Positions 9,945 through 14,601 of a stretch of 14,601 bases of DNA are shown one piece after another. The first letter of the stretch is position 1. Each line of letters begins with the position of its first letter. The DNA is from Candidatus Thorarchaeota archaeon (GTDB lineage Archaea > Asgardarchaeota > Thorarchaeia > Thorarchaeales > Thorarchaeaceae): the NCBI GenBank assembly GCA_048882045.1, contig JBHLRZ010000056.1, positions 1 to 14,601 on the forward strand, written 5' to 3'. The notes beneath the pieces are model-generated. The model did no database searches, was not told where the DNA came from, and saw nothing but the letters and a program-made list of their open reading frames with translations. The position numbers and the translations under genes were made by a program.

Positions 9945-11186
9945 ATGCATTTTGAAGAGTCGGATGAAGAAAAGATGTTCCGCGAGGCAGTACGTGACTT
10001 CGCCCAGAAGTACGTCGCTCCCGAGTGGAAAGAGTATGATGAACACACTCACGAGATTCCTCGGAGTCTCATCAAGAAGATGGCTGAGCAGATGCTCTGG
10101 GCACCCACTGTATCGGAAGAGAATGGTGGCGCTGGACTCTCTTGGGTGATGGCATGTATAGCCGCAGAGGAACTCGCAAAGGCAGACCTCTCCATTGCAC
10201 TTCCAGTCATGTACCTTGTCGAGGCTTCATGGGCCTTCGTTTTTGACAAGTATGGAACCGATGAGGCGAAGAAAGAAATCCTCCCAAAGGTCTGCAGCGG
10301 GGACCTGTTCTTTGGTATAGCGACAACCGAACCAACTGGCGGCTCAGACCTCGTCAACTCCACCAGGACCACTATCAAGCCAAAGGGTGACGGATTCGTC
10401 ATCAACGGAGAAAAAGTGTATATCTCTGGCGTCAACGAGTCTGAGAAGTACGGTGGTGTCTACTGGACACTAGCCAAATCAGATCCCAAGGGTGACCACA
10501 AGGCGTTCGATGCGTTCATTCTCCCACTGAACATGGGTGACGGTCTCCATCCTGGAATTACGACCACTCTGTTCGAAGACATGGGACGAATGGGTGTCTC
10601 ATGCGGTGGCTTCAACATCGAGGATGTGGAGATTCCCAAGCACTACTTGATCGGTGAGCATGGCAAGGGATTCTACCACGCGATGGAGGGTTTCTCAGCA
10701 GCAAGGGTATTGATTGCTGCAACCTGTCTTGGTGCTGCTCAGGGATGTTTTGACATCGGTGTTGACTATGTCAAGCAGCGCAAGCAGTTCGGTCGACCAC
10801 TCGCAGCCTTTGAGGGTATTCAGTTCGAGGCTGTTGACTCATGGATGGCACTTCAGGGTGACAGGCATCTCACCTACCATGCAGCTTGGATAATGGACGA
10901 GTTCTATGGCAAAGGCAACAAGAACTTCACCAAACTCGACATAGCCAAGTACACTGCTGCTGCCAAGTACAAGGCACCTCACGACGCACTTGACATCATC
11001 ACTCGTGCTATGACCTGGCACGGAGCCTTTGGCTATTCCAAGGAGTGTCCTCTCGAGGCGTCCTACAGGGGTGTTCGTTCCTACACTGTCGGTGCTGAGG
11101 GTGGTAGTCATGTACAGAAGATCGTCATGGCACGTGAGATATTCGGACCTGACTTTCTGCCTTATAGACAAGAGAAACAGATGTAG
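9945..11186 (+). CDS. Acyl-CoA dehydrogenase (resident gene and cassette integration target)
   Basis: FREAVRDFA, TTEPTGGSD, INGEKVYIS, LIGEHGKGF, RKQFGRPL..FEGIQF, HGAFGY and AEGGS motifs; visibly GC3-rich codon usage compared with neighbours. Confidence 0.97.
   Translation: MHFEESDEEKMFREAVRDFAQKYVAPEWKEYDEHTHEIPRSLIKKMAEQMLWAPTVSEENGGAGLSWVMACIAAEELAKADLSIALPVMYLVEASWAFVFDKYGTDEAKKEILPKVCSGDLFFGIATTEPTGGSDLVNSTRTTIKPKGDGFVINGEKVYISGVNESEKYGGVYWTLAKSDPKGDHKAFDAFILPLNMGDGLHPGITTTLFEDMGRMGVSCGGFNIEDVEIPKHYLIGEHGKGFYHAMEGFSAARVLIAATCLGAAQGCFDIGVDYVKQRKQFGRPLAAFEGIQFEAVDSWMALQGDRHLTYHAAWIMDEFYGKGNKNFTKLDIAKYTAAAKYKAPHDALDIITRAMTWHGAFGYSKECPLEASYRGVRSYTVGAEGGSHVQKIVMAREIFGPDFLPYRQEKQM
11120..11186 (+). 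repeat. ACAD-tail repeat copy 1 (in the functional gene)
   Basis: GATCGTCATGGCACGTGAGATATTCGGACCTGACTTTCTGCCTTATAGACAAGAGAAACAGATGTAG, repeated at 12123 and 14452. Confidence 0.97.
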
Positions 11187-11202
11187 TATCATGTTTTGAC
11201 CG

Positions 11203-11223
11203 AGAGAGGGATTTCCCCTCTCT
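11203..11223. terminator. GA/CT hairpin between convergent genes
   Basis: AGAGAGGG-ATTTC-CCCTCTCT. Confidence 0.65.
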
Positions 11224-11225
11224 TC

Positions 11226-12080
11226 CTATTCTTTGTCGACCGATAGACTCCAATACTCCATCTCTAGGTCTTTGATTGTTTCAAACCACTCTACAGAATT
11301 ATAGACTAGTTCGTAACAGGATTCCTGTATATTGAGGTAGTCAAGATTCAGACTGTTCTCAAGAGGACGAAAGTCTAGTCGTCTGATGTCATTGTATCCA
11401 AGATGTAGCTCTTTCAATTCCGCACAAGAGGCCAATGGTGAAACATCAAGTTCTTTGAGCCTATTGTAGGAGATATTCAGTCGTTTCAATGAATTGCAAT
11501 CCCCAAGTGGTGTCAGATCTAGAGTTTCTAGATCATTCATGCTAATGTCCAACCATTCAAGTTTTGTACAACTACTAAGGGGAGAGAGGTCGATCTCTTT
11601 CAGATTATGGGCTGCGAGAATCAACTTTCGCAATTCTGAACAGGAACTCAACGGGGAGAGGTCAACAGTATCGAGCTTGTTGTTATAGAGAATCAATACT
11701 CTTAGAGTTGAGATAGATGAAAGAGGTCGAAGGTCTATCTCATGGAGTGGGTTTTGACTCAAGTCCAGTTCTTCCATCCTAAAAGGGAACTCAACACTCC
11801 CAAGATCAATCTCAGTCAATTTCTTTCGCGAGAGGTCAAGATAGGGAATACCAGCATCAATCTTCCTTCTGGTATCCTCACGTTTCACGATTGCCACTTC
11901 AAGTTTCCAAGATAGACAGGATGCAATCAGCATTCCAATCGCGAAGAGTATTCCAACATTTACAATGTAAAATTCTGTAGGAATCCCTAGAGGGCCAATA
12001 AAGAGTACAAGGAAAAAAGTAAGAATGAGCGTCATCACAGCCCACAAGATGAGCCAACGTCTGTACATTTGCCAGGCCAT
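11226..12080 (-). CDS. Membrane-anchored leucine-rich repeat protein (cassette 1 cargo)
   Basis: Two N-terminal TM helices followed by 7-8 repeats of 24 aa (L..L.L..N.L..IDLSPL..C..L); CCTAAATA TATA-like box about 25 nt upstream. Confidence 0.92.
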   Translation of the reverse strand: MAWQMYRRWLILWAVMTLILTFFLVLFIGPLGIPTEFYIVNVGILFAIGMLIASCLSWKLEVAIVKREDTRRKIDAGIPYLDLSRKKLTEIDLGSVEFPFRMEELDLSQNPLHEIDLRPLSSISTLRVLILYNNKLDTVDLSPLSSCSELRKLILAAHNLKEIDLSPLSSCTKLEWLDISMNDLETLDLTPLGDCNSLKRLNISYNRLKELDVSPLASCAELKELHLGYNDIRRLDFRPLENSLNLDYLNIQESCYELVYNSVEWFETIKDLEMEYWSLSVDKE

Positions 12081-12122
12081 ACAAAGCTGTTGCCGTCGTG
12101 GTATTTAGGCCCTTTGGAATTT

Positions 12123-12189
12123 GATCGTCATGGCTCGTGAGATATTCGGACCTGACTTTCTGCCCTACAGGCAAGAGAAACAGATGTAA
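12123..12189 (+). repeat. ACAD-tail repeat copy 2 (displaced 3' end)
   Basis: 62 of 67 nt identical to copy 1; all 5 changes are silent. Confidence 0.97.
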
Positions 12190-14412: not shown

Positions 14413-14451
14413 AACCACTCCTTCTTCACACTCTGCTTGAACAAAAATCAT

Positions 14452-14516
14452 TCGTCATGGCACGCGAGATATTCGGACCTGACTATCTGCCTTACAGATA
14501 AGAGAAACAGATGTAA
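14452..14516 (+). repeat. ACAD-tail repeat copy 3 (displaced, decaying)
   Basis: 60 of 65 nt identical to copy 1; includes F>Y and a CAA>TAA nonsense change. Confidence 0.97.
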
Positions 14517-14523
14517 TAAGAGA

Positions 14524-14556
14524 ATGAAGAAGAGGAGCGTTACCTCCTCTCTTCAT
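14524..14556. terminator. GA/CT hairpin after repeat 3
   Basis: ATGAAG(A)AGAGGAG-CGTTAC-CTCCTCTCTTCAT. Confidence 0.7.
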
Positions 14557-14570
14557 AGATTATTCCAATT

Positions 14571-14601
14571 CTATCCACTCTGCTTTAGGTATCCGATGAT
14601 T
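14571..14601 (-). CDS. 3' end of the next minus-strand gene (partial)
   Basis: Reads ...IIGYLKQSG*, placed after hairpin 3 much as the 132-aa gene stop (...LYSYVKQG*) is placed after hairpin 2. Confidence 0.45.
   Translation of the reverse strand, partial: IIGYLKQSG

Follow-up and report, generated by a model that had tools for sequence, protein, structure and literature searches.

Why should the end of a metabolic gene recur downstream of the gene itself, each time followed by different neighbors, and how could such a series have been built up? The window analyzed here, 14,601 nt in length, is the whole of contig C56 of G000, a metagenome-assembled genome (MAG) that is 93% complete; its source organism is a thorarchaeote, and the acyl-CoA dehydrogenase (ACAD) that it encodes is 95-96% identical to proteins of Thorarchaeota MAGs. 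ACAD is a gene of fatty-acid oxidation. The last 66 nt of its open reading frame are present three times, at 11120, 12123, and 14450 (spacings of 1003 and 2327 nt), the second and third copies being 94% and 91% identical to the native tail (blastn E about 1e-22), and a terminator-like hairpin follows each copy (z -2.8 to -4.2). The features of the anchor gene and of the repeats are as follows.

9945..11186, plus strand: acyl-CoA dehydrogenase (ACAD), 413 aa, the anchor gene of the array (Pfam PF02771/PF02770/PF00441)
11116..11127, plus strand: junction zone, start of all displaced tails (identity step at model columns 83-92 in 83 copies)
11120..11186, plus strand: native ACAD tail, copy 1, last 21 codons plus stop (sequence comparison)
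11203..11222, no strand: terminator-like hairpin 1, common to the convergent genes (z -3.06)
12123..12188, plus strand: displaced ACAD tail, copy 2, 94% identical, with four changes, all synonymous (sequence comparison)
12195..12230, no strand: terminator-like hairpin 2 (z -2.78)
14450..14515, plus strand: displaced ACAD tail, copy 3, 91% identical, with a premature stop (sequence comparison)
14524..14556, no strand: terminator-like hairpin 3, at the start of unit 3, which runs on into contig C43 (z -4.17)

The repeats and units that the original prediction placed at 11120-14601 are real, as is its statement that the two displaced tails start within 2 nt of each other, which sequence comparison bears out. 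The cargo in the window also lies, as had been said, on the minus strand.

11226..12080, minus strand: cargo of unit 1, LRR protein of 284 aa with N-terminal hydrophobic segments (profile match)
12102..12107, minus strand: TATA-like box within unit 1, 27 nt before the LRR start (from sequence; putative function)
12249..12647, minus strand: cargo of unit 2, hydrophobic membrane protein of 132 aa (from sequence)
12892..14451, minus strand: cargo of unit 2, Lrp/AsnC-HTH-like protein of 519 aa, with its start codon at the junction (cluster resemblance)

Apart from one weak 130-nt match, the LRR gene of unit 1 is absent from the 27 other genomes of the genus. The 132-aa protein has no Pfam or NCBIfam match; paralogues (41% identical) are carried in unit 12 of the same array and in unit 3, which is 685 nt long. 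For the 519-aa protein, the resemblance to Lrp/AsnC-HTH clusters may serve as a lead only. Its reading frame starts at ATG 14451, a codon kept both in a homologue from genome G021 and in a paralogue from the same genome, and the junction of unit 2 is thus placed at the start codon itself.

The array continues past the right end of the contig. The end of C56 overlaps contig C43 by 77 nt, ten further tail copies lie on C43, and a unit of a relative bridges C43 to C44, which holds about four more, decayed copies, bringing the array to about 16 in all. Tail matches were also obtained in other Thorarchaeota, in metagenome contigs, and in 21 of 24 genomes of the same genus, nearly all of them multi-copy and with different cargo and order, so the arrangement is not the fixed and identical one that would have spoken against a growing array; none was obtained in 16 genomes from outside the family. 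In a MAG, where repeats often lie at contig ends, one might suspect an artefact of assembly or mere tandem duplication, but the genes beside the copies are unrelated, the copies diverge by 6-25%, and the recurrence of the pattern in those genomes and in independent metagenome contigs has already refuted such a reading.

The start of the displaced tails was located by aligning 83 non-redundant displaced tails with native ACAD. Identity stays at background up to column 82, is about 0.5 at columns 83-87, and, wobble positions apart, is mostly 0.8-0.99 from column 88 (window 11121). This sharp 5' boundary upholds the claim that one site has been used repeatedly: scattered starts were looked for and not found, the starts clustering within about 5 nt of window 11121. 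Left of column 83, information amounts to about 0.2 bit or less, and the 83 tails have no conserved left arm. The tail start was also considered as a palindromic site for a recombinase, a reading rejected because wobble positions vary and the hairpin there is not significant.

Units of this kind invite comparison with a true integron or CALIN, the tail-plus-hairpin repeats being its attC sites. Most units carry a single ORF (109 of 163) and they are reordered among genomes, and Asgard archaea do possess integrons (PMC9668308). Thorarchaeota are not mentioned in that account, however, and neither this genome nor the ORFs of the array include a tyrosine recombinase (PF00589). The repeat is a coding sequence under codon-level constraint, the hairpin at the site falls short of significance (z -0.63), and cargo occurs in both orientations. 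The integron reading is largely refuted and must be rated very improbable. The displaced tails retain a coding signature (pN/pS 0.17) with lineage-specific alleles, and 61 of 79 contain non-native residues, indicating that they come from the ends of working genes and decayed later.

Across genomes unit length has a median of 1.3 kb (range 0.13-13.7 kb), and the distance from the junction to the last complete ORF has a median of 50 nt, against 582 nt under a null of random cuts. The original prediction also stated that each complete unit ends about 40 nt upstream of its last cargo start codon. This is true of unit 1, whose end lies 42 nt before the LRR start, but not of unit 2, which ends at the start codon, and no fixed offset of that size holds as a rule over genomes (range 3-380 nt). 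Antisense cargo likewise fails as a rule, with 139 minus-strand against 95 plus-strand cargoes. The view of the array as growing by accretion is supported, and its polarity, with the newest unit next to ACAD, fares differently from genome to genome. In this genome tail decay grows with distance from ACAD (rho -0.63, or -0.75 when C44 is included), and nuclease-bearing elements, described below, always occupy unit 1; a general decay gradient was rejected, the pooled rho being 0.0 and that of G005 +0.69.

Several arrays contain arrangements of their own. Empty units of 134-137 nt, consisting of tail and terminator alone, occur at L041:11174-11312 and L034:14137-14274. At L144:11031 (G047 C42) an ACAD tail followed by cargo lies within another large contig, away from ACAD, as an ectopic insertion or rearrangement. 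The array at L287 (795-1283 and 11924-13186) includes, some 11 kb further downstream, a second 3' part of ACAD (162 aa), which represents a long displaced copy. In FT5_021 the first unit contains an HNH ORF (L030:3350-3694), probably as cargo.

The original prediction named no enzyme; a candidate for the founding agent is found in relatives. Directly behind ACAD, 13 of them carry a LAGLIDADG nuclease gene (10 ORFs and three remnants) together with a variant tail. The gene is a convergent ORF with two motifs directly behind the ACAD stop at L035, L036, L038, L048, and L070, and remnants occupy the same place at L062, L049, and L060; all five of the close homologues looked up also sit directly behind ACAD. 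A HerA-like ATPase gene usually accompanies it. A structure model of the nuclease built with an alignment (pLDDT 88, compared with 38 for the single-sequence fold) matches PI-SceI and I-DmoI, and both acidic positions of the LAGLIDADG motifs (D18, D142) are invariant in 22 sequences. Pfam matches are confined to LAGLIDADG_3 and HTH, with no intein or zinc-finger domain detected.

Two loci, L288 and L289, represent minimal elements of 5.1 kb composed of variant tail, nuclease, and HerA-like ATPase. They have a common far end and adjoin a displaced tail exactly at column 88, the same border base as in the array; on this sequence evidence, the junction zone at 11116..11127 is a plausible site of nuclease cutting and of microhomology. 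The nuclease is present in 4 of 20 first units and in none of 220 others (nominal p 4e-5, genomes not being independent), and an ATPase remnant lies at the start of one distal unit in G015. No nuclease copy was found in the present genome (93% complete), so any part played by the enzyme here would be historical or exercised in trans. An intact 11-nt target core is retained by 0 of 13 nuclease-bearing alleles and by 4 of 22 alleles without the nuclease (rank test p 0.2), which is only suggestive of target-site alteration, and hence immunity, in element-borne tails. The correlation of the 3' part of ACAD with the gene body declines gradually, from about 0.7 to 0.36, with no step at the site.

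More distant paralogues of the nuclease lie behind other conserved genes. Convergent examples are found at L264, L266, L271, L286, and L282, and the genes ahead of them, judged by their C-termini, resemble etfA, a TFS/RpoM-type gene, and a YchF-type GTPase gene. The larger nuclease elements L038, L289, and L291 carry type I restriction-modification or methylase cargo. Viral contigs yielded neither ACAD tails (searched in IMG/VR) nor the nuclease, one chance match aside.

Units also move between genomes. Entire units are common to different species from end to end at 79-94% identity with differing neighbors, and unit order conflicts in four of nine order comparisons. Cargo is accompanied by the upstream tail's terminator and by derived alleles from the 5' portion of the downstream tail (in small counts). 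The crossovers of exchange are thereby placed within the tails, where homologous recombination would put them. That the displaced tails are nothing more than a target-site duplication of the resident one was rejected in view of foreign-type tails and unit-specific terminators. In one case the formation of a border can be followed. Homologues of unit 2 in G021 and G007, as well as a paralogue in the same genome, continue beyond the junction without a tail, and these donor-type sequences have 3-7 nt in common with the ACAD site. The border of unit 2 thus appears, from these alignments, to have formed at microhomology in ordinary, unrecombined donor-type DNA. It is the one clean donor junction found.

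Integrases, on the other hand, classically leave a displaced 3' fragment whose border is fixed (10.1101/2020.12.28.424599; PMC4898812), and the 7-nt microhomology looks like an overlap region. Tyrosine or serine integrases might have used the ACAD end as attB, leaving the units as decayed or cis-mobilisable remnants in the manner of tRNA additive islands or of SCC at rlmH, and the enzymes could have escaped notice, as mobile elements are often missing from MAG bins. The displaced tails, however, lack a conserved left arm, and a resident integrase, resolvase, Y1 transposase, reverse transcriptase, IS110 element, or Cas1 was sought and is absent from this genome (PF00589, PF00239, PF07508, PF01797, PF00078, PF02371, and PF01867). 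Over the genus, PF07508 is found in 0 of 28 genomes and PF00589 in eight (20 of 28 lack a tyrosine recombinase), and no ACAD tail stands beside any of these integrases. There is none among the array ORFs, no tail was found in IMG/VR, and the intact 5.1-kb elements hold the nuclease and the ATPase only. An integrase hotspot is accordingly regarded as improbable; the array was most likely started by a selfish homing endonuclease that brings along a replacement gene end.

Homing of this type, in which the 3' end of the target gene is replaced, has been tested for WHO elements at FBA1 (PMC7282813) and for mORFs (PMC3630166). For the ACAD array we give it a probability of about 0.68 as the source of a fixed break, with repair and recombination between tails adding and shuffling cassettes. 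The element would consist of a variant ACAD tail with terminator, a LAGLIDADG gene with two motifs and convergent orientation, in most cases a gene for a HerA/VirB4-like ATPase, and optional cargo, and its target would be the 3' end of ACAD, no integrase being involved. Once its DNA had entered a cell by some presumed route of transfer, the nuclease would cut the resident ACAD near window 11121. Breaks made by LAGLIDADG enzymes carry 3' overhangs of 4 nt (PMC13619312). Repair of the left end from donor DNA would copy in the variant tail, which may confer immunity, and whatever follows it; the right end, beginning with the old tail, would be rejoined and so become the displaced tail. Rejoining could proceed through homology with a donor tail, bringing in ready-made cassettes, or through short microhomology, in which case the fixed site would gain a new cassette border. 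Later decay or loss of the nuclease and ATPase genes would leave cargo-only units, and recombination between the tails of about 66 nt would add, delete, and reorder units and move them between species. Such 3'-replacement homing would explain why the border is fixed, why no arm is present, why tails are mosaic, and why units are added beside ACAD. Its weak points are that immunity is only suggestive, that a phylogenetic step is lacking, and that a single clean donor junction is to hand. Junctions also lie closer to ORF ends than would follow from end-joining by itself, and either strong selection or some additional bias has to be invoked.

This genome also shows the same architecture at several unrelated anchors (tRNA-Val, rps19, and nrdD), cassette borders are gene-sized, and most arrays lack the nuclease. 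These observations would suit a host enzyme or general repair, that is, homology-anchored illegitimate recombination, as the maker of cassettes, with the LAGLIDADG element a passenger at an existing hotspot. Sequence-independent repair does not explain, however, why dozens of independent junctions should have a single border base, and no border motif is common to the anchors. Furthermore, this nuclease subfamily goes with ACAD and with position 1, its paralogues lying behind other conserved genes. We consider this explanation unlikely, and retain homing by the nuclease as the preferred one.

The other anchors and repeats differ in layout. In G000, cargo at C49:784-16942 and C91:1981 (L134, L136) is separated by seven tRNA-Val-like 3'-half fragments, and the unit after the fragment at C49:784 encodes a multi-HTH protein (923 aa) and a HerA-like ATPase (1029 aa) that is related to the one in the ACAD element. 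Displaced tails of rps19 (uS19) are present at C12:81055-85196 (L137) and also genus-wide, with a border that in most genomes lies about 83 nt before the gene end but in G000 and G004 about 60 nt before it; a border motif in common with rps19 and the upstream D4 repeat was rejected because the rps19 border lies about 27 nt to its left in most genomes. Two displaced, decayed tails lie downstream of nrdD on C14 (L190). Short same-strand repeat families between single genes occur at C1:252683-257300, at C39:6471-26283, at C20:60245-63021 with C53:15288, at C10:14100-15555 and 66089, and at C24:13472-15808. Within the window, an 84-nt repeat (5256-5339 and 7782-7865, 87%) is the tail of ORF 7409-7858, and each copy precedes one of two paralogous membrane genes of 533/550 aa (about 71% at the nucleotide level); here the full gene is downstream of the fragment, a polarity opposite to that of the ACAD array. 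A 150-nt repeat (1303-1451 and 2421-2570, 73%) matches the end of ORF 653-1471 to an intergenic stretch and is probably a gene remnant. Those of the other repeats that were tested against Rfam gave no match at the gathering threshold.

A more far-reaching view, offered tentatively and at somewhat less than even odds, is that Thorarchaeota possess an integron equivalent that has no recombinase, in which the LAGLIDADG-plus-ATPase elements act as self-targeting delivery vehicles that, by cutting at the ends of conserved genes, capture and import gene-sized cassettes, and the tails are kept as recombination handles by which accessory genes would circulate through the lineage.

No published account of the ACAD locus was found in the literature searched, the coverage of which is incomplete. 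The closest known system is that of the yeast WHO elements at FBA1 (Coughlan et al., 2020; PMC7282813), where a free-standing LAGLIDADG gene likewise travels with a replacement 3' end of a metabolic gene, and repeated homing shifts old 3' fragments downstream, their starts lying at about one position in polymorphic clusters. The ACAD array differs in its archaeal host, in its target, in a nuclease gene that is convergent, paired with a HerA-like ATPase, and free of an intein-like region or zinc finger, and in being filled with unrelated cargo. Its nuclease genes occur only in position 1, the pushed-down copies of WHO clusters being missing, and cleavage is here a predicted step. The mORFs of fungal mitochondria (Allomyces atp6; Glomus atp6, atp9, cox2, and nad3) insert a foreign C-terminus with an endonuclease ORF, and the native C-terminus stays displaced downstream (PMC3630166); they are single insertions without cargo arrays, whereas up to about 16 units, exchanged between species, are found here.

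In the additive flexible islands and tycheposon islands found at tRNA genes, too, a conserved gene is followed by cassettes that vary in number and order, are marked out by partial gene repeats, and are shared by species (PMC4898812; 10.1101/2020.12.28.424599), but they are integrase-driven (shown for tycheposons) and mostly tRNA-anchored, in contrast to the gene-sized units (median 1.3 kb) seen here, for which no integrase was found. In SCC/SCCmec, tandem cassettes accrete at the 3' end of the protein gene rlmH, and units without a recombinase can be moved in trans (PMC11470126); SCC relies on Ccr serine recombinases and short att sites, and PF07508 is absent from all 28 genomes here. Integrons and CALINs, archaeal ones included (PMC9668308), resemble the array in outcome, with mostly single-gene cassettes that are reordered and shared, yet no IntI, attI, or attC (as judged by the coding tail and the hairpin z) was found here, a coding gene end together with a terminator serves as spacer, and both cargo orientations occur. 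The array is therefore not an integron, nor is it a WHO element in the strict sense. If the homing account is correct, 3'-replacement homing, tested so far in yeast and in fungal mitochondria, extends to Asgard archaea and can seed arrays of cargo cassettes that behave like integrons with no integrase. This would provide a testable route for the flow of accessory genes in Thorarchaeota and would narrow the predicted cut site of an undescribed LAGLIDADG subfamily to a few bases.
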